Notes: a model not told the origin generated them from the letters alone. A DNA stretch of 64,000 nt from Flavobacteriales bacterium (GCA_016705955.1 JADJKO010000010.1:6280-70279), one strand, 5' to 3'. Positions 8,802-64,000 are shown, numbered from the stretch's first letter. A program made the numbers and translations.

Positions 8802-9788
8802 TCAGACCTTCTCGAACACCATGCGGTAGTGCTCGAAGATCTCGCGCTCGAACACCTGTAGGTTGGGTGCGATCCGGTAGCGCCGTACCCACTTGCGGAA
8901 GTTGCTATTGAAGAGCTTGGGAAGCAATGTGGCGTAGAGCCCGTACTTCTGGAGATCGAACTTGTTGAAGGCGGCTGTCCATCGGTGGATCGTTTCGATG
9001 TAGTCCAAACGGCCACTGTCGGAGTGGATCAATTTGAAGCGCTCCTTCGCGGGTTCCACCATGCCTTCCTGGCCATAGGGCAGCCACGATCCAGGGAAGA
9101 CATCACAGACGAGGTCCATCAACTCTTCACCGGAGTAGCTCTTCCTGTCCTTCCACACATTCGTCTCGCCGAACTTGATGTCCTCGAACTTCACCATGTT
9201 CGGACCGAACACCATGGTCTGGCAGTAGAAGCGACCTCCCACTGGCAAGAGTTCCGCGACCTGCTTGAAGTACGTGCGGTAGATCTCCTCTTGCTTCCCC
9301 GCACGATATTCCTCCACGGAACAGAGGTGCTCCGGGCTGCCCATTGCGCAGACGGCATCGAAGAGGCCGAAGGTCTCCGGGGTGATGGACTTGCTATCCA
9401 TGTGGTGTACGTTCAATCCGTTCGCACGGCATGCATCGGCCTGGCCCTTCGCCAGCACCACTCCGGTGGTGTGTACACCGCGCTTGTTCAGATAGTCGAT
9501 GAAGGCGCCCCAGCCACATCCGATGTCCAGCACCTTATCGCCGGGTTTGATGCGGCAGTGCTCCATGATGAACGCGTGCTTGCGCTCCTGTGCCTGCTCC
9601 AAGCTCAAGGAGAAGTCGCCATCGAAGCGTGCGCCGCTATACCCGCCCTTCTCGCCCAAGCTCAGGCGGAAGATCTTGTCCATGGTGGTGTAGTGCGCGT
9701 CGAGTTCCTGCTGATCGGCCATGCGAACAAGGTAAGTGTGACCGTACCGCCCCTCGAAGTTGACGTCCTCTTCGGTGGTTCTTATCAC
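8802..9788 (-). CDS. Class I SAM-dependent methyltransferase (cyclopropane-fatty-acyl-phospholipid synthase family)
   Basis: 328-aa ORF; SAM-binding motif VLDIGCGWGAF and overall CMAS-family architecture. Confidence 0.75.
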   Translation of the reverse strand: MIRTTEEDVNFEGRYGHTYLVRMADQQELDAHYTTMDKIFRLSLGEKGGYSGARFDGDFSLSLEQAQERKHAFIMEHCRIKPGDKVLDIGCGWGAFIDYLNKRGVHTTGVVLAKGQADACRANGLNVHHMDSKSITPETFGLFDAVCAMGSPEHLCSVEEYRAGKQEEIYRTYFKQVAELLPVGGRFYCQTMVFGPNMVKFEDIKFGETNVWKDRKSYSGEELMDLVCDVFPGSWLPYGQEGMVEPAKERFKLIHSDSGRLDYIETIHRWTAAFNKFDLQKYGLYATLLPKLFNSNFRKWVRRYRIAPNLQVFEREIFEHYRMVFEKV

Positions 9789-9811
9789 ACTACGAGGTCC
9801 ATCACTTAGTT

Positions 9812-9901
9812 GACCTCTTTCCTAATTCAGTCACGCCCCTTTGCACCTCATCCTTTATCCTTCTCCCAAGGAGAAGGAGTGGATGAATTAGGAAAGAGGT
9901 C
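9812..9901. repeat. Large nested stem-loop (18-bp perfect outer stem, 8-bp inner stem)
   Basis: gacctctttcctaattca (9812-9829) pairs perfectly with tgaattaggaaagaggtc (9884-9901); inner ccttctcc / ggagaagg (9859-9877). Confidence 0.55.
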
Positions 9902-9993
9902 TAGTGTGGGACAAGCCCAGAGCGCGCGGGAGCGGGAGATAAGTTCGGGGGGTGGTGATCCGGAACACCGATCACAGATCCGCGTGAGCGCGA

Positions 9994-10347
9994 TCAAGCA
10001 GCCTTGAAGCGGTCGTTGGCCTCCCGAATGAAGGCTTCCATGTCCTTGGCTGAGAGCCTGCGCGCCAATGCATGGAGATCAGCAACCCCTTTGTCCTTGG
10101 TGAGGAAGGCGAGGTGGTCATTGCCTGCAATGGCAACGGCTTGGGCGGGCCGATAATCGTACAGGTCATGCGGCTCACAGCGGAAGATGCGACAGAGTTT
10201 CTCCAGATCCGAGAAGTGAAGGCGCTTCATGGTACCCGCGATGAGCTTCTTGGCGGTGTGATGCGAGAACCCGTTGCTGGTAAGGAACGAGTACGGACGC
10301 TGAACGCCTTTGAGGCGAGCGATGCGGGGAATGTCGAGGGTGATCAT
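9994..10347 (-). CDS. XRE-family helix-turn-helix transcriptional regulator
   Basis: 117-aa product from an internal Met (MITLDIPRIARLKGV...FSDLEKLCRIFRCEPHDLYDY), a typical Cro/C1-type HTH; the ORF's upstream extension to 10434 is unlikely to be coding. Confidence 0.55.
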   Translation of the reverse strand: MITLDIPRIARLKGVQRPYSFLTSNGFSHHTAKKLIAGTMKRLHFSDLEKLCRIFRCEPHDLYDYRPAQAVAIAGNDHLAFLTKDKGVADLHALARRLSAKDMEAFIREANDRFKAA

Positions 10348-10808
10348 GGCAGGTGCTCGTTGGAATTCAGTGTGTGCGTTGATGTGATCGCGGCTTGGAA
10401 CGTGGATATCCGATCGGAGGTTGCAGAAGATCAATGGGAAGGTGTGCCATGGGGATCTTCGGGTGTAGGAGAACAGGCTTCGGGTGCCCTAGCCGGGATG
10501 GCGGATGCAGGAACCGAACACGGCGGTGTGATGATCAAGGTATCATGCGCCGAACTTGAAGCTTGGGGTGCTGCGATGAACGGACCGGGTGTGGCAATGG
10601 AAGCTTCGGGTGCCTTTTTGAAGATCAGCGGGACGCGGATGACCGCACGCGACCGGTTATGCCCAGGTGCGAATGGTGAAACGCCTACTGGAGTGCAAAA
10701 AGCAGGCGCACGGTTCGCAGATCCGCGTGAGCGGGGGCCCGGCCCCGCGCCGGCCCCGCGCGGCGCCGCGGGCGGGGGGCGCCGGGGGGGCCGGGGGGGC
10801 CGCGGAAC

Positions 10809-10910
10809 GATATAAAGCTCCTGATCATCGAGCATCAAGGCCAAAGCCATGTCTCCTTTCAGCGCGTAGCGGACGATGTTGGTATCGACCAACAACCTAC
10901 TTCCATCCAT
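10809..10910 (-). pseudogene. Truncated PIN-domain (VapC-like) toxin fragment
   Basis: First 34 codons MDGSRLLVDTNIVRYALKGDMALALMLDDQELYI match PIN N-termini (LLVDTNI...); the reading frame then runs into a GC-rich low-complexity tract (10734-10808) encoding PRPPRPPRRPPP; start overlaps the upstream antitoxin stop by 14 nt. Confidence 0.55.
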
Positions 10911-11070
10911 CGCGCATCTTCTTCTGGATGGCCAGCGGATCGCACTCCAACTTCAGCTTACCGGCGAAGCTCTTCACGTCAACGCCCTTCCTCATCCGTG
11001 TTCGCTTCTTGCTCTTCAGCAGCACTGCGAGCTGTTTCCGCGTGGTGGATCGTTTCACGATGATGGTCAT
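10897..11070 (-). CDS. Small VapB-like antitoxin (57 aa; below the ORF-track size cut-off)
   Basis: Hand-translated minus-strand ORF MTIIVKRSTTRKQLAVLLKSKKRTRMRKGVDVKSFAGKLKLECDPLAIQKKMRDGWK; its 3' end overlaps the PIN fragment start (ATGGATGGAAGTAG), the classic TA gene overlap. Confidence 0.5.
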   Translation of the reverse strand: MTIIVKRSTTRKQLAVLLKSKKRTRMRKGVDVKSFAGKLKLECDPLAIQKKMRDGWK

Positions 11071-11098
11071 GCGGCGCGTGGATGAACAAATGTAGCGT

Positions 11099-12082
11099 TC
11101 AATACCCCCCGCCCCCGCCCTGCCCGCGTTCGATCGGGTGCCAGGTGGTTTTCACCTCTTGGGTATCGAGGATCATGTAGGGTGACTGCGCATCGGCGCT
11201 CATCCAGTCCTTCACCTTGGGAACTACCACACGCTTCATGTTCGTAGCAGCTTCGGTGTCGAGCATCGTCTTCTCCTCCTTGTCCTCGGCTCCGCTCGGA
11301 CTGACAGTCGGGGCAACGACGATCGCGTTGATGTCCATGTGCGACACGAGGGGCTTGAGCAATTCGCTGCGGAAGCCGGTGAGCAGGTTCACCACGCCGC
11401 CGGGCAGGTCGCTGGTGGCGAGCACTTCGGCGAAGGTGACGGCGGGTAAGGGATGCTTCTCACTGGCCACTACCACGGCTGTGTTGCCGCCTGTGATCAC
11501 AGGAGCGATCAAGCTCACCAGTTCCAGCAGGCCGTTGCTTCCGCCAGCCATTACGCCCACCACGCCGGTGGGTTCCTCCACGCTGAAGTTGAAGTGCGAA
11601 CTGTTGGTGGGGTTCACGCTGCTGAAGAGTGCTTGGTACTTGTCACACCAGCCGGCGTAGTGTATCCAGCGATCGATCGCTGCACTCACTTCTTCATTCG
11701 CTTGTTGCGCTGTTGATCCGTGTAGTACAAGCTCATGCACGAACTGTGCGCGGCGGCCTTCGAGCATCTCGCCGATGCGGTAGAGGATCTGCCCGCGGTT
11801 GAAGGCGCTGCGGTTGGCCCAATCGCCCAAGGCCTTGCGCGCGGCGATCACGCTCTCGCGGACATCCTTACGACTGCTGCGGCAGATGTTCGCCAGCGCT
11901 TTACCGTCCGTGCCTTTCGGCTGGTAGTAGCGGCCACTCTCCGTGCGCGGGAATTTGCCGCCGATGAAGATCTTGTAGGTCTTCATCACGGGAACGCGCT
12001 CCGCCTTCTTAGCGGTGCCGTTGGTGCCGTGGCCGTTGAGGTCGGCTTTGACAGCGGTCGTCTTCGTGATCGTCTTGCTCAT
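11099..12082 (-). CDS. Aldehyde dehydrogenase-like protein, N-terminal (NAD-binding) half only
   Basis: 327-aa product from an internal Met (MSKTITK...KTYKIFIGGKF...GGNTAVVVASEKHPLPAVTFAEVL...GGVVNLLTG) aligns to the ALDH N-terminal domain but lacks the catalytic Cys/ELGGK region; ends in GQGGGGGY, encoded by a C/G homopolymer tract. Confidence 0.55.
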   Translation of the reverse strand: MSKTITKTTAVKADLNGHGTNGTAKKAERVPVMKTYKIFIGGKFPRTESGRYYQPKGTDGKALANICRSSRKDVRESVIAARKALGDWANRSAFNRGQILYRIGEMLEGRRAQFVHELVLHGSTAQQANEEVSAAIDRWIHYAGWCDKYQALFSSVNPTNSSHFNFSVEEPTGVVGVMAGGSNGLLELVSLIAPVITGGNTAVVVASEKHPLPAVTFAEVLATSDLPGGVVNLLTGFRSELLKPLVSHMDINAIVVAPTVSPSGAEDKEEKTMLDTEAATNMKRVVVPKVKDWMSADAQSPYMILDTQEVKTTWHPIERGQGGGGGY

Positions 12083-12144
12083 TAGTACTGACTGTGCGTA
12101 GCCAAAGCTACGGCCCGGCTGACGAGGATCTATTTGGGACCGGA

Positions 12145-12726
12145 TCAAGCATCCTCCAATCCCTTCCCTTCCAGGATCCGCTCCACGCATTTCTCGATCC
12201 TCGCCTCGCGGGTCTTCGCTTGTTTGGCCGATGAGAAGTGAAGCAGGTAGCCGCGCTGGCGACCCGGTGTCAGCGCGTTGAATGCCTTCTTCAAGGCAGG
12301 TATCGAAGCCAACTTGTTCTTGAACTCTTCGGGCATGTCGAAGGCCGCCGTTGGCTTGAGCTTCACTTCCAGACCGGCCTTTTCCACCTCGATGGCTTCG
12401 TGGGTATACGCCTTCACGATGCGCTCCAGCTTCACGATCTCCTTCAAGTCGGTAAACCGGATCTGGCGCGCGGCCTGCACGTTCTTGGTTTGTTGCACCA
12501 GGATCCCGTGATCGTCCTTGAGCAAGGCGCCCTTGTGGAAGAGCAACGCGCAGTAGTCCTTGAAGGCATGGATCAGCACGACGTTCTTCTTCTTGAGCGT
12601 GTAGCACGGATGGCCCCACTTCATCTCCTCTTCGAGGCCGCAGTCCAGTAGGATCATCCGGAGCTTCTCCTGCTCTTGCTGCCACTTGCCGGCTTTGTTG
12701 AAGTACCAGTCAACGGTGGGGTTCAT
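12145..12726 (-). CDS. YdeI/OmpD-associated family protein (DUF1801)
   Basis: 193-aa ORF with the characteristic MNPTVDWYFNKAGKWQQE... N-terminus of this family. Confidence 0.75.
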   Translation of the reverse strand: MNPTVDWYFNKAGKWQQEQEKLRMILLDCGLEEEMKWGHPCYTLKKKNVVLIHAFKDYCALLFHKGALLKDDHGILVQQTKNVQAARQIRFTDLKEIVKLERIVKAYTHEAIEVEKAGLEVKLKPTAAFDMPEEFKNKLASIPALKKAFNALTPGRQRGYLLHFSSAKQAKTREARIEKCVERILEGKGLEDA

Positions 12727-12803
12727 GCCACGAACTTATGCCGAACCGAACTTTGCGTGATCACAGTTGGCCCACATACCTTGGTCCGACAGATCACGAA
12801 CCC

Positions 12804-13160
12804 ATGTCACGACACGTCACCGGTATCGGCGGATTCTTCTTCCGCTCGGACGATCACAAGGCACTTGCCGCGTGGTACAACAAACACTTCGGCATCAACG
12901 ACCAGGAGAACGGCTGGATCTGGCAACAGGATGCCGGCCCCACGGTGTTCTCGCCGTTCAAGCGCGACACCGACTACTTCGGCAACGACAAGCAGCAGTT
13001 CATGCTGAACCTGCGCGTGCAGGACATGGATGGCCTGCTGAAGAAACTCGAGGCCGACGGTGTGCGCATCGACCCCAAGCGCATGGATGAGGACTACGGC
13101 CGCTTCGCGTGGGTCTTCGATCCGGACGGGAACAAGATCGAATTGTGGGAGCCGAAGTAG
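12804..13160 (+). CDS. VOC family protein (glyoxalase/bleomycin-resistance fold)
   Basis: About 118 aa from an internal Met (MSRHVTGIGGFFFRSDDHKALAAWYNKHFG...IELWEP), the typical VOC beta-alpha-beta-beta-beta motif. Confidence 0.75.
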   Translation: MSRHVTGIGGFFFRSDDHKALAAWYNKHFGINDQENGWIWQQDAGPTVFSPFKRDTDYFGNDKQQFMLNLRVQDMDGLLKKLEADGVRIDPKRMDEDYGRFAWVFDPDGNKIELWEPK

Positions 13161-13277
13161 GTGGGGTCGGAAACCGATGCACTCGAACCTCGCTGGATCT
13201 GAGACCATTCGTGCCGTGAGCATCGATCCCATATTTCGTTCAGCTACGGCTTCTTTACATCACAACTTCGGAGCCTC

Positions 13278-13835
13278 ATGCGCCCCCTTCGCTTCTCCAT
13301 CAACGTCACCTTGGACGGATGCTACGACCATACCGTCGGGCTCGCGGACGAGGACCTGCACCGCAACGCGATGGAGTACATCGCCGGGTGCGACGCCTTG
13401 CTCTTCGGCCGGGTGACCTACGACATGATGTTGGCCGCGTGGCGCATGCCACCGAACGGGATATGGCCGGAGTGGATGCCACCGTGGATGCAGCCGTTCG
13501 CCAAGACCATCGATGCGGCCAGGAAGTACGTGGTGTCGAGCACGCTGAAGGAAGTGGATTGGAACGCGGAACTCGTGCGTGGAGATCTCGAGAAGACCGT
13601 TCAGCAACTCAAGCAGCAACCGGGCAAGGGCATCGGTGTGGGCGGCGTGCAACTCGCGATGGCCTTGACGGAATTGGGCCTGATCGATGAGTACCAGATC
13701 GTGGTACACCCGCGGATCGTGGGTCGCGGGCCAACCTTGTTCGCAGGACTATCGAAGATGGTGGACCTGAAGCTTGTGGGCCGACAGGAGTTCGGCTCGG
13801 GGGCGGTGGCGATGCGGTATGAAGTGAAGCGGTAG
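13278..13835 (+). CDS. Dihydrofolate reductase family protein (RibD C-terminal domain)
   Basis: 185-aa ORF; FSINVTLDG...LLFGRVTY...IVVHPRIVGRG pattern of YwjB/RibD_C proteins. Confidence 0.8.
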   Translation: MRPLRFSINVTLDGCYDHTVGLADEDLHRNAMEYIAGCDALLFGRVTYDMMLAAWRMPPNGIWPEWMPPWMQPFAKTIDAARKYVVSSTLKEVDWNAELVRGDLEKTVQQLKQQPGKGIGVGGVQLAMALTELGLIDEYQIVVHPRIVGRGPTLFAGLSKMVDLKLVGRQEFGSGAVAMRYEVKR

Positions 13836-15734: not shown

Positions 15735-16238
15735 CTACAGAGTACAGGTGAACTTGATACCCAACTCCTCGATCATCTTGAAGTCATCGATGCACCGAAC
15801 ACCCATTGCGTCACAGACATGCGGGATCTTCACTCGCTTGTTGTTCGCGGCTGTCGGTTTCTCCTCCTTGGACACGACGCAAGCGTTCTCGGCCATAGCA
15901 TGGGCGATCAGCCATGGATCCGCAAGTGATCGCTGCTTCGTGTTGTCCACAAGCAGCTGGTGCTTCGGGTCCTTCGCATAGATCTCTTTCAACTTGATGC
16001 CGACTTCCTCTGTAACACTCCGAACCTTGACGCGACTTTTCTTCAACCATTTCGACAAGTCGTCGTCGGTGCGATGGATCTCCTCGGCTACCCAACTCGG
16101 AACGAATAACTGACCGTGAGCGCCAAGCTCATCCAGGACATTCCAATAGGTAGGGCAAACGTTCGGTGAGTAGTAGCTCTCCCATGCTTTGATGAGCACG
16201 TTCGCATCGAGGCAGTATATGGTCGACTGCAAGCTCAT
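15735..16238 (-). CDS. DUF4411 family protein (PIN-like nuclease fold)
   Basis: 167 aa; MSLQSTIYCLDANVLIKAW...LVPSWVAEEI motif characteristic of DUF4411, usually found downstream of ImmA/IrrE genes; 4-nt overlap with the upstream gene. Confidence 0.8.
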   Translation of the reverse strand: MSLQSTIYCLDANVLIKAWESYYSPNVCPTYWNVLDELGAHGQLFVPSWVAEEIHRTDDDLSKWLKKSRVKVRSVTEEVGIKLKEIYAKDPKHQLLVDNTKQRSLADPWLIAHAMAENACVVSKEEKPTAANNKRVKIPHVCDAMGVRCIDDFKMIEELGIKFTCTL

Positions 16239-17416
16239 CGGTACATGATGGCCTCGAACTTCGAGAAGTTGTTCACCGGCGTGTTGAGCAGGCTACTCGC
16301 CAATGTGGGTTGGATCACACCTCCGCGAAAGGCATCCAGAACGACCTGGGTGAAGAGTCGCCCATTCTTGTTCAAGCGAAGCAGATAGGGATCCGGGCCG
16401 CCCTTGGACCGCTCCTTCTCCTTGTTCTTCTCCGACAATGCACGCAGGTATTCCTTGAAGTCCTTGTCCAAGGTCGCCTTCATGGAATGGTAGCCCGCGT
16501 CGGTGACGAGACCACGACCATGAGCGCGCACTAGCAAAGCCCACGAACTCACACCGGATCTCTCAGAGATCTGAGCGATCGATCTGGGATCCGAGAATTG
16601 AGAAGCGGTCAATGACGCCATCACCCGATCCGGCATCAGCGCATGAGCCGCAACCGCATTGCAGAAACGTTCGATGGGATCGGCGTTAGTAACGTTCGTT
16701 ACCTCTGGCTCGATCTCGCTTGAGATCCCGGTAGCCGCGATCCAGATATGTGCCAACTCATGCACTAGCGTGAACAGCTGCGCTTTGTCCCAATCCTCGG
16801 TATTGATGAAGACGAAAGGAGCGTGCGGGTCAGCGATGGCAAAGCCTTGGAACTCATCGCTGTCCAGTTTCAACCGTGTGTGAATGAAGCTCGTACGTGA
16901 AATGAAAATACCTGCGGCCTCCGCCTTGGTCATCCATTCGCGGATCGGCTCCTTCTCCTGGTAGGCTTCGGGATCAATGCCCAGCGTATAGAGGATGTCC
17001 TGCGCCACGGCGCTAGATTCATCGTTCGCCGTGTAGCGGCCAACGAACGGCAGGGCCGGTTCTTCGTTCTCGCGCTGCAATTCACTTATCCAACTATGCT
17101 TCTGTTGGATATCCCGAAGTATGAAGACCGCCGCAGTTGTCAACTCCTTGGAGCCGGAGCGACGGAAGTCGTTAAGCGGCGTGAAGTCATACGGAACATC
17201 AGGCAGGAACAGCATGGCGAACGGCCTGCGGTAAGCCTTCGCAAGCGTCTCCGCCTGTCTGATGGTCGGCTGTTCGGTTCCTTCCTCCCATTTAGCCAAA
17301 CGCTCAGGTGTAAGCCTCGTGACTTTCTTGGCCGCTTGCTCAAGAGTGAGGCGCGCTGTTTCGCGCGCCCACTTCAAGACCTTAGGAGTTATGTAGGCTT
17401 TCTCTGCCACTGGCAA
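16235..17416 (-). CDS. XRE-HTH / ImmA-IrrE family zinc metallopeptidase fusion
   Basis: 393 aa; N-terminal HTH (LKWARETARLTLEQAAKKV) and HEXXH zinc motif (LVHELAHIW) typical of ImmA/IrrE proteases. Confidence 0.85.
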   Translation of the reverse strand: MPVAEKAYITPKVLKWARETARLTLEQAAKKVTRLTPERLAKWEEGTEQPTIRQAETLAKAYRRPFAMLFLPDVPYDFTPLNDFRRSGSKELTTAAVFILRDIQQKHSWISELQRENEEPALPFVGRYTANDESSAVAQDILYTLGIDPEAYQEKEPIREWMTKAEAAGIFISRTSFIHTRLKLDSDEFQGFAIADPHAPFVFINTEDWDKAQLFTLVHELAHIWIAATGISSEIEPEVTNVTNADPIERFCNAVAAHALMPDRVMASLTASQFSDPRSIAQISERSGVSSWALLVRAHGRGLVTDAGYHSMKATLDKDFKEYLRALSEKNKEKERSKGGPDPYLLRLNKNGRLFTQVVLDAFRGGVIQPTLASSLLNTPVNNFSKFEAIMYR

Positions 17417-18229: not shown

Positions 18230-18790
18230 TCAAGTCCAGGGCACCTTAACAGATCGTTCTCGACTTTGAACTAGCACGTTCAGCGTGGGGTGAATACGGT
18301 CGTACAAACCCTTGAATACATCAGGCCATTTCCCTCCTAGTTGGATGGATGTGACTTGCAAATCATGAGACTTCGGAACTGGATAGCGAAATTCTGTCTC
18401 CATCATCCGTTGGACTTGATCACAGAAAATGTCTTCGTTCTGACTAAGGGAGATTTTCGCCATACGGGCCAACTTCTTCAACTGGTGCGTTTGAATCTTT
18501 CGTGCTAAGGCACCATTCGAAATGAGCGTTTTATCCTCGAGGATAATCTTGCCCTTGAACAGACATTCAACGCTGTAACCAAGCAGCGCACCGTAAATGT
18601 GAAGCGTAGAAACCATTGAGCGCGTATCGTCGGTTGCCTCTCCCCGAACACGCTTCATTAAATCCTCCAGCTGCCGTTCGCATTCTGGCCAAAGCAACTT
18701 TGCGGCATGGCGGAGATCGGAAGCTTTGCGTCCCCAGAAGTAAGGGCTGGCTTCCATTCTGAAATACTGATGCTCCTTTGGTTCAGGCAT
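18230..18790 (-). CDS. Hypothetical protein (island-encoded)
   Basis: About 186 aa from an internal Met (MPEPKEHQYFRMEASPYFWGR...); no recognised family. Confidence 0.4.
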   Translation of the reverse strand: MPEPKEHQYFRMEASPYFWGRKASDLRHAAKLLWPECERQLEDLMKRVRGEATDDTRSMVSTLHIYGALLGYSVECLFKGKIILEDKTLISNGALARKIQTHQLKKLARMAKISLSQNEDIFCDQVQRMMETEFRYPVPKSHDLQVTSIQLGGKWPDVFKGLYDRIHPTLNVLVQSRERSVKVPWT

Positions 18791-18932
18791 TTCGCGTGAG
18801 CGATTGAAGCGGAAACCCCGCAAGCCCGGTAATCCGGGCGCGGAGTTGCAGCGGAAAGCGCGACCCGGCTGCATTTGAGCCGGGGCACGCCCACATCTCG
18901 ACTACGCTCGATGTGACAACGCTCCGCATCCC

Positions 18933-36648: not shown

Positions 36649-38094
36649 ATGAACGTAAGATCACTACTCGCTGTACCGGCCCTGTTGACCGGCTTGCTCG
36701 TTGGGGCCCAGAACCAAAGCTGGACCGCCACGGATATCGACGGCAACTCGATCCACCTCCAAGATTATCTGGATCAAGGCAAAACCGTATTGGTGGACAT
36801 CAGTGCCTATTGGTGTGGACCCTGCTGGGCGTGGCATACCAGCGGGATCATGGAGAAGCTCTATCATGAATTCGGCCCTGAAGGAACCAATGACCTCGTG
36901 ATCATCTGGGTGGACGGTGATGCCGCCACCACTTCCGCTCTCCTGCATGGCGCCACAGGCTCACAAGGCGATTGGGTGACCGGTACGCCTTATCCCATTA
37001 TTGGACCCAATGGGCAAGGAAATACGCTGGCCAACCTGTATGGGATTACGGCTTACCCTACATTGTTCATGCACTGCCCCGGCGCAAATGCTGGTGTTGA
37101 GATCCAGCGCCAGAGCACTTGGCAAGCGTTCTTCAATAGCTGGCGGACCGCTTGCCCAGCTCCGTTCAACAACGGTGCGAACGATGCCACGTTGATGCGA
37201 ACGGAGAGCGGGGTCCTTTGCCCCGGTGAACACCCCAAGGTGGAACTCTACAACCAAGGAACAAGCACCCTCACCAGCGCTACCGTGAAACTCATGCAAG
37301 GCACAACCGTGCTCCAGACCGTTAACTGGACCGGTAGCTTGGCCCGGTGGGCCAGCACGAACGTCAGCTTCGACAACGTGAACGTGGTGGGAACGCAGAC
37401 CTACACCGGCGTTGTGAGCATGCCGAACGGAACGGCCGATGAGCACCCCGAGGGCGATGAGGAGGATTATGAGTACTCACCGGCTCCGCAGGCACTGTTG
37501 GCCACCGTTCAACTGGAACTCAAGACCGATAACTACTGCGAAGAGACCTCGTGGAAATTGTACAACGCCGCGAACCAGGTCATTCAGCAAGCCGGACCGT
37601 ACACTGCGAACACCCAGGACAATACCGTGTTCAACTATTGGTGGAACCTGAACCCGAATGAGTGCTACCGCTTGGAAATACTGGACGCATACGGCGATGG
37701 CTTCTGCTGCTCCTATGGCAACGGATACTACAAAGTGCGGAGCGGTGGCGTGATCATAGCTCAAGGTGGCCAGTTCGGTGCGGTCGCCAAGGCTCCGTTC
37801 GCTGCGGGTGCAGTTGTGGGTATCGAAGAGAACAGTTTGGAGGAAGGCCTCAGCATGTTCCCGAACCCGACCAACGGAACCTTGAACGTGCGGTTCAACA
37901 TGACCAGCGCGGCTACGGTGCGCATCAAGGTGCTGGACCTGATGGGCGCTGAAGTGATGACCATGACCAAGGGCTTCGGCACGGGTGATCAACAGACCAC
38001 CTTGGACCTGAGCGCACTTGCCAATGGTAGCTACATCGTGAACATCCTGGCCGACGGCCTCACCGCCACGCGCAAAGTGACCGTGAACCAATAA
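36649..38094 (+). CDS. Thioredoxin-fold (WCGPC) secreted protein with a T9SS C-terminal sorting domain
   Basis: Signal peptide; thioredoxin active site YWCGPCW; C-terminal LNVRFNM...VKVLDLMGAEV...GSYIVNILADGLTATRKVTV matches the T9SS C-terminal domain. Confidence 0.7.
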   Translation: MNVRSLLAVPALLTGLLVGAQNQSWTATDIDGNSIHLQDYLDQGKTVLVDISAYWCGPCWAWHTSGIMEKLYHEFGPEGTNDLVIIWVDGDAATTSALLHGATGSQGDWVTGTPYPIIGPNGQGNTLANLYGITAYPTLFMHCPGANAGVEIQRQSTWQAFFNSWRTACPAPFNNGANDATLMRTESGVLCPGEHPKVELYNQGTSTLTSATVKLMQGTTVLQTVNWTGSLARWASTNVSFDNVNVVGTQTYTGVVSMPNGTADEHPEGDEEDYEYSPAPQALLATVQLELKTDNYCEETSWKLYNAANQVIQQAGPYTANTQDNTVFNYWWNLNPNECYRLEILDAYGDGFCCSYGNGYYKVRSGGVIIAQGGQFGAVAKAPFAAGAVVGIEENSLEEGLSMFPNPTNGTLNVRFNMTSAATVRIKVLDLMGAEVMTMTKGFGTGDQQTTLDLSALANGSYIVNILADGLTATRKVTVNQ

Positions 38095-38188
38095 GCCAGT
38101 TGCGATAGACGTTCATTCGAAAGGTCAGCGATCCGGAGCAATGTTTGCCAACGATCGCTGACCTTTCATTTGAACCCAACCCAAGACC

Positions 38189-38686
38189 ATGAGACTAACG
38201 ACCACTTTGCTCCTTGTCGGAGTCCTTTCGATCCCCGCATTCGCCCAACAGCGTCTACCCAATGTTACGGTCCAGACCCTTGATGGCAAGAAAGTGGACA
38301 GTCGTACATTCAGCAACGACGGAAAGCCTGTGATCGTGAATTTCTGGGCGACCTGGTGTGCTCCATGCAAGAAGGAATTGAACGCCATTGCGGAGAAGTA
38401 CGCCGACTGGCAAGCAAGAACCGGCGTGAAGCTCATCGCGGTGAGCATTGATGATGCCCGCAGTATGGCGCGCGTGAAACCCTATGTTAGCGGCCAGGAT
38501 TGGGATTACGAAGTCTACCTTGATCCCAACGGCGACCTCAAGCGTGCATTGAATGTCAACAATGTCCCACATACATTTCTGCTGAACGGGAATGGCGAGA
38601 TCGTCTATCAGCACAACAATTATGAGCCAGGGGACGAGAACGTGTTGTTCGAGCAAGTGCTTGAACTTGTGGGCAAGAAGAAGTGA
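38189..38686 (+). CDS. TlpA family thiol-disulfide oxidoreductase (redoxin)
   Basis: 165 aa; signal peptide, FWATWCAPCKKE active site, TlpA/ResA-like length and pattern. Confidence 0.85.
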   Translation: MRLTTTLLLVGVLSIPAFAQQRLPNVTVQTLDGKKVDSRTFSNDGKPVIVNFWATWCAPCKKELNAIAEKYADWQARTGVKLIAVSIDDARSMARVKPYVSGQDWDYEVYLDPNGDLKRALNVNNVPHTFLLNGNGEIVYQHNNYEPGDENVLFEQVLELVGKKK

Positions 38687-38690
38687 TCCG

Positions 38691-40376
38691 ATGATCCGTA
38701 TTCCGTGTGGCGCATGGGCGCTGCTTTGCTTGGCTTTCCTGCTGGCCACCCATTCGGCGGCCCAGGACAATGGCCAACTGCATGGCAACTTCAGCATGGA
38801 TGCGCAGTACTACAACGAGGACGATGTTATCGGCGCCGTTGTTCCGCTGGAGCGACTGGCTGCGAATTCATGGATGAATCTGATCTATTCGCGGGACCGG
38901 TTCGAGATCGGCGGGCGATTCGAGGCTTATGAGCCGCGCCTTGCAGGCTATCCTGCAGGGCAGCCGTACATCGGATCAGGGATCGGATACCGGTATGCGA
39001 AGTACACCCAGAGCGATCTTGAAGTAACCGCGGGGAATTTCTTCGAACAGTTCGGCCAAGGCTTGATCTTCCGGAGCTACGAGGAACGTTACCTCGGCGT
39101 GGATAATGCCATGGAGGGCGTGCGCGTGAAATACCAGCCATATCCGGGGATCCGTTTGAAAGGGATCATCGGGCGCCAGCGTTTCGGTTTCGATAATGGA
39201 CTTGTGAATGGTGCCGGTCTTGTGCGTGGTGTCGATGCGGAATTGGACATGGCCGAATTGCTCGACACCTCATGGACCTGTGTCGGCAACCTGTTGATCG
39301 GTGGCAGCTTCGTGAGCAAATACCAGCAGGACCGGGATCCCTTGCTCGTGCTTCCGGAGAATGTCGGTTGCTATGGCATCCGGTTGAACTACATCTCCCC
39401 GCGTTGGAACCTGTACACAGAGTACGCCTACAAGATCAATGATCCGAACGGCAAGAACGGGTTCATCTACAAACCCGGTCAGGCCGTGATGTTCAATATC
39501 ACTTACGCGGTGAAGGGTTTCGGGGCCACATTCGGTGCGCATAGTTTCGACAACATGTTCTACCAGAGCGATCGCGCCGCTCCGACACCCTTCGACCTGA
39601 ACATCAACTACCTACCACCGCTGACGAAGCAGCATACCTACAACTTGCCTGCAACGCTCTACCCCTACGCCACACAACCCAACGGCGAGGTAAGCACGCA
39701 AGGGGAGGTCTTCTACAAGTGGAAGAAAGGGACGGCCTTGGGCGGAACCTATGGAACCAAGATCGCGGTAAACTATTCCACCGCGTTCGCCCTGGATACC
39801 ACCAAGCTCGGTATTGCCGACGACACCACGGCACGCATGGGTTACACCACCAAGTTGTTCTCCAAAGGCAAGCGCCAATACTTCCAGGACTTCAATATCG
39901 AGATCCGCAAGAAGGTGAGCGCCGATTGGGAGTTCGCACTGACCTGGCTCAACTTCACCTACGACATCGACATCATCCAAGGCAAACCCGGAAAGCGGAC
40001 CGTTTACGCTGACATCCTGGTCCTGGAAGGTCTTCACCATTTCAATGACCGGCATTCGATCCGATTCGAACTGCAACACCTGAACACCAAACAGGATCAT
40101 GGCAACTGGGCCACCGGCCTTGCCGAGTTGACCTTCAGTCCGCACTGGTTCCTGGCTGCCATGGACCAGTTCAATTATGTGACCACATCGCCAGAGGAAG
40201 GGGTGACACCGGACCGGATCCATTATCCGATAGGGTCGGTAGGCTATATCCGGGGCGGCAACCGTTTCCAAGTGAACTACGGCCGTCAGCGAGCGGGCAT
40301 ATTCTGCGTGGGTGGAGTTTGCCGACAGGTACCAGCGGCCAATGGACTCACTCTTTCCATTACGAGTACGTTCTAG
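38691..40376 (+). CDS. Putative outer-membrane beta-barrel protein (DUF6029-like)
   Basis: Signal peptide MIRIPCGAWALLCLAFLLATHSAAQ; alternating beta-strand pattern, C-terminal aromatic residue (…LTLSITSTF); start at an internal ATG of ORF 38592..40376. Confidence 0.5.
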   Translation: MIRIPCGAWALLCLAFLLATHSAAQDNGQLHGNFSMDAQYYNEDDVIGAVVPLERLAANSWMNLIYSRDRFEIGGRFEAYEPRLAGYPAGQPYIGSGIGYRYAKYTQSDLEVTAGNFFEQFGQGLIFRSYEERYLGVDNAMEGVRVKYQPYPGIRLKGIIGRQRFGFDNGLVNGAGLVRGVDAELDMAELLDTSWTCVGNLLIGGSFVSKYQQDRDPLLVLPENVGCYGIRLNYISPRWNLYTEYAYKINDPNGKNGFIYKPGQAVMFNITYAVKGFGATFGAHSFDNMFYQSDRAAPTPFDLNINYLPPLTKQHTYNLPATLYPYATQPNGEVSTQGEVFYKWKKGTALGGTYGTKIAVNYSTAFALDTTKLGIADDTTARMGYTTKLFSKGKRQYFQDFNIEIRKKVSADWEFALTWLNFTYDIDIIQGKPGKRTVYADILVLEGLHHFNDRHSIRFELQHLNTKQDHGNWATGLAELTFSPHWFLAAMDQFNYVTTSPEEGVTPDRIHYPIGSVGYIRGGNRFQVNYGRQRAGIFCVGGVCRQVPAANGLTLSITSTF

Positions 40377-60857: not shown

Positions 60858-61322
60858 TCAATTGAACGTGATTGTTGACTGGGTTGACTTGATATCCGAA
60901 CGCGGGATCACCGTGATCTCCTCGTCCAATTTGGGTAAGCGGCCCTTCACCTTGCTGGGGTGTTGGATCCGCAAACCGATGTTGCTTTCGTTGGCGCTGG
61001 CGAGCTGCCCACGCAGATTGCGGCCATCGGTGAGCAGCACGTCCACAATGCGGTCCAGGTGTTTCTGGTACTGGCGCATCACCTTGAACGGGCGGCCCAT
61101 GCCGGGGCTACTGAATTGCATTTCGAAGTTGTCCGCCTCGTCGCCGAGCTCATCGCGCACGGCGCGGTTCAGGTCGGCGAGCTCCTGCAAGGTGATGGCG
61201 CGGTCGTTATCCACCTCCACCACCAGCTTGTTGCCGGGGCGCAATTCCACCGCCACGAGGAAGTGCGTGGTACCCTCCAAGTGGTGTTGAACGATGTGTT
61301 TCACGTGTTCCGCAGTGATCAT
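60858..61322 (-). CDS. rimP: Ribosome maturation factor RimP
   Basis: 154-aa product from an internal ATG (MITAEHVKHIVQHHLEGTTHFLVAVEL…), DUF150/RimP pattern; immediately upstream of nusA as in the conserved rimP-nusA-infB operon. Confidence 0.85.
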   Translation of the reverse strand: MITAEHVKHIVQHHLEGTTHFLVAVELRPGNKLVVEVDNDRAITLQELADLNRAVRDELGDEADNFEMQFSSPGMGRPFKVMRQYQKHLDRIVDVLLTDGRNLRGQLASANESNIGLRIQHPSKVKGRLPKLDEEITVIPRSDIKSTQSTITFN

Positions 61323-61351: not shown

Positions 61352-61374
61352 AAAAAAGAGGGGCGGTCCCCTCT
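61352..61374 (-). terminator. Rho-independent terminator-like hairpin in the rimP leader (minus strand)
   Basis: Minus-strand reading: agagggg-accg-cccctct followed by TTTTTT (the run of A at 61352-61357 on the + strand), 30 nt upstream of the rimP start codon. Confidence 0.5.
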
Positions 61375-61827
61375 TCCTCATCCGCCGACTTTCGCGGGCA
61401 AATGTAGGGTTTGAGGATGAATGACGAGCGCATGAAGGCGAAGTGCGCAACTGATATGACCGCGTGCGGCGAGGATGGGGCGCGGCCTACTGGACGATCA
61501 AGCGCTCGGTGGTGACGCACTCGGCACCATCCCATACCTCCAACATATATACACCGCTGTGCGCGAAAGAGAGTGTGGTGTAGTGGCCGGTGATTCCTTG
61601 TCGACAAGCCTCACTACTCAATGCGTCGCACATAACAAGTCGCCCATCCAATGGCACTTATTTCAAGTTCACCGGGCTGCTCGTCGGGTTCGGGGCACGC
61701 CACGGAGGTGTGGGAGAAAATCCTGCGTGGTCGATTGCTTGGAGGAATACTGAATCTTGTGTGGTTGAATGCGGTTCGTTCCCTTTGTGCAACGTGCCAC
61801 TTGATTAACGGACTGGCGGCGATTTCA

Positions 61828-63663
61828 ATGACAGTATCAATTGACAAGTACAATGGTGAGCTCGCTTGGCTGACCAAGGTGGATGTGATCGCCCCGCTAG
61901 CGAAGTCCCGCTACAAATGGCCCATTCACTATGCTTCGGCTTATGCGGCAGCGGCTAGGGATGCGATAAAGGAGAACCGAGCTGAAGAAGGAATCGTGTA
62001 TCGATTCATGCAGGGAGTGTTCGAGATCTACCCCAAGTTCGAGCGCAAGAGCGAGCCATATGAACGTCACGGTGGTATGGGCTGGTTGCCTCGCGATTTC
62101 ACCGAGAAGGATATCGAGGTAATTCGAGCGCTGATACCCCGAACCGATGATGCTGCCTATCAAGCCCACTTGCTGGACCTCCTTTTCGAGAGCCGAGCTA
62201 AGGACGGGCGAGCCGCTGCGCAGGCAGCACCACTATTTCTTGAAGTGGGAATCGGCCTATCCAGCACCAATGAGTCCTACCGAATGGACGACGCTTTCAG
62301 AAGGGCGATCCAACTAGCCCGACGATCCGGATGGCGGAACGAACTCGGTGGACGAATACGCACAGGAATAATCGACCATGTGCAGGAGCTTTCTAGAGAA
62401 CCGTACGACTTCGCACTTTTCATCGGCCTCGAGGTGGTGCATGAGGCAGACCTAGGTGAAGCAGCAGCATGGTGTGAAATCGCCAAGGCCGCGGGGCAGT
62501 ACCACGCGAATATTGGAGACGAGGATAACGTTCAGCGCTTTTTCTCGCTAGTGGGGCGATTCTCTCAGAAATTGAACGATGCCGATACCGAACACGAGGC
62601 GCATCGCCAGGTTGGGGAGTCATACGTTAGACAAGGACAGAAGAGCACTGAGGGGAAAAGCAGCAGTTATCTGGCCGCTGAGATGTTCATCAAGAAAGGC
62701 ATCACAGCATTGCAGCGAGGCAAGGCATCTAGGGAACGAATCGCCCAGGTTCAGGGTATGCTGAGAGAATTCCAAGGCAGGATCCCGGACGAATTGGGAC
62801 TGGTGCGCGAAAGTGTGGACGTCGGTGATCTAATCAAGGAAAAAGTGGAAGCCGTCAAGGGCAAGGGGCATCTGGACGTTTTGAAGGTCATGCTATTCGG
62901 CTTCCCCCTAGTTGACCCGGATAAGATCCGAACGGAAGTGCTGGACGAAGTGCGGGAGCATCCTTTCCTGCACTTGTTCCAGACTAGCATTCTTGATGCT
63001 GATGGCAGGACAAGAGAAATACACAAAGGCATTCTCGACCTCCAGGGCGACGAATTGGAGGAGGAGCTAAAGAAGCGGATGCTTCATCGTGCGCAGCACC
63101 ACTGGAAATGGAGAGGCCAGACGCACATCCTGCCAATCTGGGAACGGTTACGTGAGGACCACACGATTAGGCAGGAAGACCTGAGGTGGCTGGTCACGCA
63201 CAATCCTTGGATCCCCGGCGGGCACGAGGGGATAGTTCTGCGCGGACTTCAGGCTGGTTTTGATGGGGATTTCCTGGTTGCCGGTCACCTGCTCACCCTT
63301 CAATTCGAGGCGTGCGTTCGGCACGTCCTCGTGAACGCCGGTGCACATGTTTCTCTACTGGAAAAAGACGGGACTGAATTGCTGAAGACTTGGGGCGGTT
63401 TGATGTCGCTACCAATGGCCGCGCAGCTCTTTGGTCCCGAGTTAGTCTTCGAAATGTCCGGTTTGCTGTTCGAGGAATCGGGATATGGCGTACGACACAA
63501 GGTCGCCCATGGAATGCTGAAGGCTGATGAGTTCGACAACTACGCGACCCTCAACATCTGGTGGCTGATGCTATATATGTGCTTCATACAGGTGGCTTCT
63601 AGGTCCGACGCAGCCAAGGTTGGCGGACCCGAAAGACGACCACCAGAGGCGTCGAGTCAATAA
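61828..63663 (+). CDS. Large uncharacterised protein with a C-terminal Rx4HG (HEPN-like) motif
   Basis: About 611 aa from an internal ATG of ORF 61651..63663; no family recognised by eye; C-terminal GYGVRHKVAHGMLKADEFDN carries R-x4-H; local GC looks lower than the window average. Confidence 0.6.
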   Translation: MTVSIDKYNGELAWLTKVDVIAPLAKSRYKWPIHYASAYAAAARDAIKENRAEEGIVYRFMQGVFEIYPKFERKSEPYERHGGMGWLPRDFTEKDIEVIRALIPRTDDAAYQAHLLDLLFESRAKDGRAAAQAAPLFLEVGIGLSSTNESYRMDDAFRRAIQLARRSGWRNELGGRIRTGIIDHVQELSREPYDFALFIGLEVVHEADLGEAAAWCEIAKAAGQYHANIGDEDNVQRFFSLVGRFSQKLNDADTEHEAHRQVGESYVRQGQKSTEGKSSSYLAAEMFIKKGITALQRGKASRERIAQVQGMLREFQGRIPDELGLVRESVDVGDLIKEKVEAVKGKGHLDVLKVMLFGFPLVDPDKIRTEVLDEVREHPFLHLFQTSILDADGRTREIHKGILDLQGDELEEELKKRMLHRAQHHWKWRGQTHILPIWERLREDHTIRQEDLRWLVTHNPWIPGGHEGIVLRGLQAGFDGDFLVAGHLLTLQFEACVRHVLVNAGAHVSLLEKDGTELLKTWGGLMSLPMAAQLFGPELVFEMSGLLFEESGYGVRHKVAHGMLKADEFDNYATLNIWWLMLYMCFIQVASRSDAAKVGGPERRPPEASSQ

Positions 63664-64000
63664 CGCGAAGCCCCCCTAACTCCAGCGGATTAGACCAAGG
63701 CAGGGTATCCTTCGCGGCGTGAGCCGCCACCCCAGACCTCCGCAGTTGCTCTAGTCTTGCCCATCGATGAGGATTCGTTCCTTGTCTGGGATAGATCACT
63801 GAAGAGAACTGAGCCGGGCCAGGGGTGAACCAACTCCGCAGCTAGGGCACAAGCCCTAAGAGACTTATGGGTACCTCTGGCCTTCTCAGGTCCTAGGCTC
63901 GGATAGAATTTCAGGCGTAAGGGCCTATTAGAGTCATGGAGCATCGGACCTGTCATTCAGCCTCTCCAGCGATCGTGTGTTGAACCAAAAGTAAACGAAC

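Follow-up and report, generated by a model that had tools for sequence, protein, structure and literature searches.

We analysed a window of 64,000 nucleotides from a Flavobacteriales bacterium (GCA_016705955.1, JADJKO010000010.1:6280-70279), in which all positions are counted from the first letter. Near the end of this window, the conserved rimP-nusA-infB operon was bordered by inserted DNA. According to the ORF list, rimP, the first gene of the operon, occupied positions 60858-61322 on the minus strand. Beyond it lay a hairpin, a short probable gene remnant, and a coding sequence on the plus strand (61828-63663), which was followed by a spacer and an IS110-family transposase ORF. The coding sequence specified a protein of 611 aa with a DUF7380 domain, a TPR-like solenoid, and a DUF4209 domain of the HEPN type, and the protein belonged to the PADLOC family PDC-S39. 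On the ORF list, the plus-strand open frame extended over 61651-63663, and the 611 aa were counted from the start at 61828. This start agreed with where the homologues begin, and it was also the start called on four public contigs, each of which encodes the identical 611-aa protein. The ORF that had been proposed from the sequence alone was thus a real gene. The dN/dS of the gene relative to a 73%-identical homologue was ~0.08, with dS saturated, and therefore the gene was considered to be under constraint.

The insertion upstream of rimP

The base composition of the insertion was compared with that of its surroundings. The GC content was 0.546 for the ORF and 0.549 for 61401-64000, compared with 0.587 ± 0.0165 for segments of the same size elsewhere; only 1.5% of such segments in the remaining sequence were as low in GC. 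The third codon positions also differed from those of the flanking operon, with a GC3 of 0.61 for the HEPN gene and of 0.80-0.85 for rimP, nusA, and infB. The sequence-only reading had described a patch of lower GC against a background of ~62%; the drop was confirmed, whereas the background was actually ~59%. Two other stretches of the window were low in GC. One patch (15735-17416, minus strand, ~0.54) contained a gene for a 393-aa HTH and ImmA/IrrE (Peptidase_M78) protein, which was followed by a gene for a 167-aa DUF4411 PIN-like protein (4.6e-44). Such a pair of genes is probably reminiscent of toxin-antitoxin or defence-like modules. Near the pair, at 18230-18874, was an ORF of 214 aa that had no Pfam match. 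The composition scan gave a third lower-GC stretch (~0.55) at 37500-39000.

To place the gene among related genomes, rimP loci were scanned with one genome per species. We found rimP in 35 related loci from high-GC Flavobacteriales or Bacteroidota MAGs, at 52-94% amino acid identity, and the 611-aa protein was encoded beside rimP in none of them (0/35). Many of these loci carried a conserved MORN-repeat gene ~200 bp upstream of rimP. In other loci, rimP was preceded by a variable stretch of 1-8 kb, usually with genes for ~500-aa secreted proteins bearing a type IX secretion sorting domain. The interval between the MORN-repeat gene and rimP was a variable spot in L005, L008, L021, L030, L031, and L038, ranging from ~200 bp to 8 kb and usually holding differing type IX cargo genes; that of L005 included a gene for a 1792-aa beta-helix protein.

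The homology between the window and L005, its closest relative (100% amino acid identity in nusA), stopped at 61511. A 56-codon frame at 61490-61657 on the minus strand overlapped this point. Its last 23 residues (GVYMLEVWDGAECVTTERLIVQ) could be aligned over their full length with the very C-terminal ends of two Por_Secre_tail proteins from L005, a weak match with E values of 0.006-0.15, and a Pfam scan of the 56 aa gave no match, Por_Secre_tail included. At the same spot, relatives carried intact genes for secreted proteins of ~500 aa. Judging from these alignments, the frame is probably what is left of the 3' end of a type IX secretion cargo gene that was truncated, and the left edge of the acquired DNA would lie at this remnant. 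Between the remnant and rimP, 30 nt upstream of the rimP start codon, the minus strand contained a terminator-like hairpin (61352-61373, GAGGGG-ACCG-CCCCTC followed by T6). Its fold energy was -25.5 kcal/mol (z -4.3), and it was conserved in L005 and in the contig L001. A leader-region hairpin near the HEPN gene, as noted in the sequence-only reading, does exist. A consensus terminator scan did not flag this hairpin, which could either terminate the upstream cargo gene or act as a leader attenuator for rimP-nusA-infB. Neither a tRNA nor an integrase was found near the insertion.

On the other side of the gene, the spacer (63664-64000, plus strand) probably holds the left end of the insertion sequence, and its predicted fold was unremarkable (z -1.27). 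Two contigs, L001 and L002, extended the window. On L002, position 9884, which equals window position 64001, was the start of a 342-aa ORF in which the domains DEDD_Tnp_IS110 and Transposase_20 were recognised; this ORF lay 337 nt downstream of the HEPN gene. The IS110 coordinates were 9884-10912 on L002 and 12381-13562 on L001, where the MORN-repeat gene came after the IS110. No Rfam family was found in L001 or L002, the 5' region of the IS110 included. A homologue on a Klebsiella plasmid (L043) also had an IS110 transposase ~200 nt downstream; the shared neighbour may be a coincidence or may reflect a shared insertion preference.

The comparison with L001 showed that the flank on the side of rimP-nusA-infB was ~85% identical to the window, whereas 61400-64000 was 99-100% identical, and that the segment with the remnant, the HEPN gene, and the IS110 occupied L001 ~9575-13600. 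A clean transfer between species was considered on the basis of the 99-100% identity. This explanation was downgraded because the near-identical stretch began in native sequence upstream of rimP and the MORN-repeat protein of L001 was 94.6% identical to its counterpart in L005, the close relative of the window. Instead, L001 may reflect a recent homologous replacement between species or may be a chimeric MAG contig.

The 64-kb window contained neither hsd genes nor hsd remnants, and L001 (21.8 kb) contained no hsd genes. An origin from a decayed restriction-modification (R-M) operon was rejected since no hsdS or other R-M remnants were present beside the HEPN gene in the window. The neighbours here were rimP, the remnant, and the IS110, and none of them is a known defence system of the kind in or next to which PDC-S39 genes are embedded. 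Collectively, the gene is accessory and was horizontally acquired, next to an IS110, at a variable position on the upstream side of rimP, because it was missing from all of the related rimP loci, had an atypical GC3, and lay between the truncated cargo gene and the insertion sequence. The suggestion of an integrated accessory gene was thereby borne out.

Domain composition and family of the 611-aa protein

The 611-aa protein matched two Pfam families, and membership was accepted for scores above the gathering threshold. DUF7380 (PF24098) covered aa 15-173 (61870-62346, plus strand) with 70.7 bits against a cut-off of 27 (E 1.8e-19), and DUF4209 (PF13910) covered aa 494-582 with 31.3 bits against a cut-off of 22.3 (E 2.1e-7). 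An NCBIfam scan of the protein gave no match. In a PADLOC scan, the profile PDLC05012 of the defence candidate PDC-S39 was matched over its full length, with aa 23-597 aligned to positions 21-608 of the 615 in the profile (E 1.7e-98), and a second PDC-S39 profile, PDLC05011, was matched with an E value of 5.8e-96.

Word-indexed searches with the single protein or with a 4-sequence profile gave only 5 proteins, whereas an exhaustive HMMER search of 1.84 billion representatives revealed the family. This search gave 3021 related cluster representatives at E <= 1e-3, with 510 at E <= 1e-30; nearly all were ~600 aa long and matched end to end. Most relatives were only 23-43% identical to the protein, and one metagenomic relative was 73% identical. 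The sequence-only reading had called the protein an orphan with no recognised motif in its N-terminal ~450 aa. Neither statement holds, given the family, the Pfam and PADLOC matches, and an N-terminal part that comprises DUF7380 and a TPR-like fold. The protein adds one member to a family that had been predicted and catalogued before, and it does not represent a novel kind of system.

The motif GVRHKVAHG, which had been noticed in the C-terminal region, was present at aa 554-562, with R556 to H561 encoded by nt 63493-63510 (plus strand). The protein contained four Rx4H strings, compared with 1.8 expected by chance; at the level of sequence, such a string is by itself no evidence for a HEPN domain. 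The copy at 556-561 counts because it was invariant in the family and lay inside a HEPN fold. In an alignment of 130 relatives, the sole invariant positions were D117, R159, R556, and H561, each kept in 130/130 sequences. Near-invariant positions were Q492, E494, R498, G552, G562, and W578-W579, among which E494 and R498 were each conserved in 128/130 relatives. The family consensus around the Rx4H motif was GxNLRNxxAHG. Among the 130 relatives, 111 had N at residue 557, 14 had H, as does the 611-aa protein, and 4 had D. The C-terminal domains of 50 relatives all matched DUF4209 (50/50), and a relaxed Pfam scan of these domains matched no other family of the HEPN clan. The DUF7380 domain carried an invariant pair of its own, D117 and R159, together with a near-invariant R114 (aa 113-117 at ~62164-62178 and aa 159 at ~62302-62304). 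Position 114 was H in the 611-aa protein and in 4/130 sequences of the alignment overall. The set of D117, R159, and R114 may have a structural role as a salt bridge or may constitute another functional site.

The AF2 model of the 611-aa protein had a pLDDT of 96.3 and a pTM of 0.87. In this model, the N-terminal part had a TPR-like fold, with a helical-repeat region at ~aa 127-380 (62206-62967, plus strand) that is presumed to be the sensor or regulatory part, and the HEPN domain occupied ~aa 467-598 (63226-63621, plus strand). Structural matches were obtained for Csm6 (8.1 and 7.4), YutE (7.8), the HEPN domain of sacsin (7.2), and AbiA (7.1), and for the HEPN/MNT toxins 7ae2, 8xdj, and 5yep (7.3-7.6). 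KNTase-C, LsoA, RnlA, MtlR, Las1, and AbiV were lower in the list of matches. Sequence-profile searches of the PDB with the HEPN domain gave nothing significant. We found neither a Walker A motif nor a convincing transmembrane segment in the protein. According to these results, the product of the ORF is a cytoplasmic three-part protein consisting of DUF7380, a TPR-like alpha-solenoid, and a C-terminal HEPN domain (DUF4209).

Anantharaman et al. (2013, PMC3710099) described the hallmarks of the HEPN superfamily as an Rx4-6H motif, in which the R is directly followed by a polar residue ('mostly N, D or H'), and an acidic Ex3[KR] motif located further upstream. In the present study, the C-terminal domain showed the all-alpha, HEPN-type helical-bundle fold. 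Its predicted catalytic Rx4H motif was R556-H557-K-V-A-H561, in which H557 is the polar residue after the conserved R, and the upstream acidic motif was E494-A-C-V-R498 (63307-63321, plus strand), which was also conserved in the relatives. As far as can be judged from sequence, the DUF4209 domain carries the complete signature of a metal-independent endoribonuclease, and RNase activity is predicted. The HEPN-like interpretation of the C-terminal Rx4H motif was upheld by the fold and by the family-wide invariance of R556 and H561. In the same paper, DUF4209 was already placed in the HEPN superfamily under the name C6orf70 (ERMARD), a family that the authors characterised as 'fused to TPR', as 'Bacteria > Eukaryotes', and with the remark 'occurs in R-M related operons' (PMC3710099).

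Genomic context of the relatives and comparison with known systems

The 73%-identical homologue began 2 nt past the last base of an hsdS gene call, and a 40%-identical homologue was located in an hsdM-hsdS-X-GmrSD-hsdR operon on three contigs. Type I R-M genes were present in the mostly short flanks of at least 15/80 metagenomic loci. HsdS was the commonest Pfam family among 114 immediate neighbours (10 cases, in a census with no matched control); ResIII, Mrr, SIR2, BrxL, DarT, HipA, KAP NTPase, resolvase, and TnsA were also found there. Relatives were carried on plasmids of Klebsiella, Aeromonas, Natrinema, Chlorohelix, Deinococcus, and Bacillus. The Aeromonas plasmid relative was located beside recombinase genes, with a methyltransferase-helicase pair ~1.2 kb downstream. 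The E. coli relative (P2-EC46 ORF612) was present in 21 of 5426 complete genomes, and in the two loci examined it lay between the P2 replication gene A and the portal gene Q. Rousset et al. (PMC9122126) experimentally validated this gpA-gpQ interval as the old/tin anti-phage hotspot. Some relatives were located among housekeeping genes and had no defence neighbours. These results indicated that type I R-M operons and the P2 gpA-gpQ (old/tin) hotspot are habitual positions of the family. Embedding in a defence system was observed for the closest homologues and for many family loci. According to Payne et al. (2024), PDC systems trace back to genes that were found within BREX, DISARM, and type I R-M systems; the 145 PDC systems, with the PDC-S39 family among them, were described as untested candidates. 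Experimental tests of DUF4209, DUF7380, or PDC-S39 proteins were not found in the literature.

Among the known systems, the C6orf70/ERMARD HEPN family (PF13910 and PF24098, PDC-S39) agreed with the 611-aa protein in length, architecture, Rx4H motif, Ex3R motif, and predicted fold. That family is characterised by the TPR-like fusion and by embedding in R-M operons, whereas the gene analysed here was solo, chromosomal, located beside an IS110, and not accompanied by R-M genes. PrrC is a HEPN anticodon nuclease that is embedded in hsdMSR and fires once a phage disables the R-M enzyme (PMC3710099). In PrrC, as well as in RloC, a C-terminal HEPN RNase is part of a large single polypeptide, as in the 611-aa protein. 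PrrC is a latent second line of defence and lies inside a type I R-M operon (hsdMSR), as do the closest homologues of the 611-aa protein. By this analogy, PrrC appears to be the nearest mechanistic analogue. PrrC and RloC have an N-terminal ABC ATPase, in contrast to the DUF7380 domain and TPR-like solenoid found here. The 611-aa protein is not a member of the PrrC family because this ABC-type ATPase is absent: no Pfam or NCBIfam ATPase match, no Walker A motif, and no PADLOC PrrC match was obtained. HepT/MNT and minimal HEPN proteins (AF0298, YutE, and SO_3166) are ~130 aa long and have a paired gene for a nucleotidyltransferase antitoxin. Here, the HEPN domain instead forms the end of a 611-aa protein, and there was neither an adjoining MNT or other NTase ORF nor a HepT-like Pfam match. 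HEC-08/DUF3644, ApeA, AbiV, and the HEPN domain of AbiA belong to other Pfam/PADLOC families, to which the protein gave no profile match, and their N- and C-terminal partner domains differ from those of the 611-aa protein.

Predicted function and alternative explanations

We consider the gene product to be a latent, sensor-regulated defence RNase acting in abortive infection, with a probability of roughly 0.65. The idea of a single-gene abortive-infection or defence protein, which the sequence-only reading had put forward as a guess, is supported by the full-length PDC-S39 match, and on this sequence evidence a defence function is suggested. The other comparisons suggested with that reading, of GC with the flanks and of synteny with related genomes, also came out in its favour. 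In the proposed mechanism, the TPR-like solenoid, together with DUF7380, would keep the HEPN RNase latent and would sense a phage cue. For the relatives embedded in R-M operons, the condition of the R-M complex may serve as this cue, much as it does for PrrC. In HEPN proteins, the active site is usually shared between the two subunits of a dimer. Once activated, the HEPN site would cut RNA of the host or the phage and produce 2',3'-cyclic phosphate ends, and this cleavage would stop translation and abort the infection. The solo copy beside rimP would have to be controlled by an unlinked partner or by some different route.

A more specific proposal is that the DUF7380/TPR-HEPN family represents a second, ATPase-free, PrrC-like solution for guarding type I R-M. 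Here, the solenoid would dock the latent RNase on the type I R-M complex, and the RNase would fire when phage anti-restriction proteins disable the complex; solo copies would by now be autonomous sensors or guards of an unlinked R-M system. Since no hsd genes were present at the rimP locus, such a guard mechanism cannot be read off this locus, and we regard the proposal as possible but rather doubtful. In a weaker variant, the adjoining IS110 may carry or mobilise the HEPN gene as cargo.

Compared with a latent defence RNase, a selfish addiction or toxin module appears unlikely. In such a module, the HEPN RNase would stabilise the mobile DNA that carries it, the IS110-flanked patch included, by killing cells that lose it. 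This would agree with the distribution of the family on plasmids, in prophages and R-M cassettes, and near resolvases, transposases, and IS elements, as well as with the HEPN toxins of toxin-antitoxin systems (7ae2, 5yep, and 8xdj) among the structural matches. However, no small antitoxin-like gene adjoined the HEPN gene, which has the remnant upstream and the insertion sequence downstream. Moreover, the typical family member is a solo ORF of ~600 aa that includes a large sensor-like part, and the P2 site of the E. coli relative is an experimentally validated anti-phage hotspot. It is very improbable that the HEPN protein has no catalytic activity and serves only to bind RNA or a partner, as MtlR does, or that it is a decaying remnant of a lost R-M operon. 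An H replaces the usual N after the catalytic R and also replaces R114 in the N-terminal domain, and the gene has lost an R-M context or never had one. Nevertheless, H at the former position is an accepted variant (PMC3710099) and recurred in the 14 relatives mentioned above, R556, H561, E494, and R498 were all intact, and the ORF was unbroken and identical on four contigs, with its low dN/dS arguing against decay. Finally, the protein could be a housekeeping or regulatory RNA-processing factor, like ERMARD/C6orf70 or Las1, that came to lie beside rimP-nusA-infB by chance. Although it adjoins a translation/RNA operon and one of the DUF4209 proteins is a conserved eukaryotic one with a predicted role in ER-associated RNA degradation, the gene was missing at this locus in 35/35 related genomes, had an atypical codon GC3, was divergent from rimP, and was flanked by an insertion sequence and a truncated gene. 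The rarity of the E. coli relative among complete genomes and its location in P2 prophage at both loci examined also argue against this explanation, which we consider extremely unlikely.

For the window itself, this result has little import: an uncultured wastewater Flavobacteriales genome has one further accessory gene, probably a defensive one, at a variable spot. The DUF7380/DUF4209 family is more interesting than the locus. It comprises thousands of 50%-identity clusters, lies repeatedly between hsdS and hsdR, and ranges over Bacteria and at least one archaeal plasmid, with a eukaryotic offshoot (ERMARD). For mutagenesis, clear targets are available from the high-confidence model and from the four residues that are invariant in the family (D117, R159, R556, and H561).
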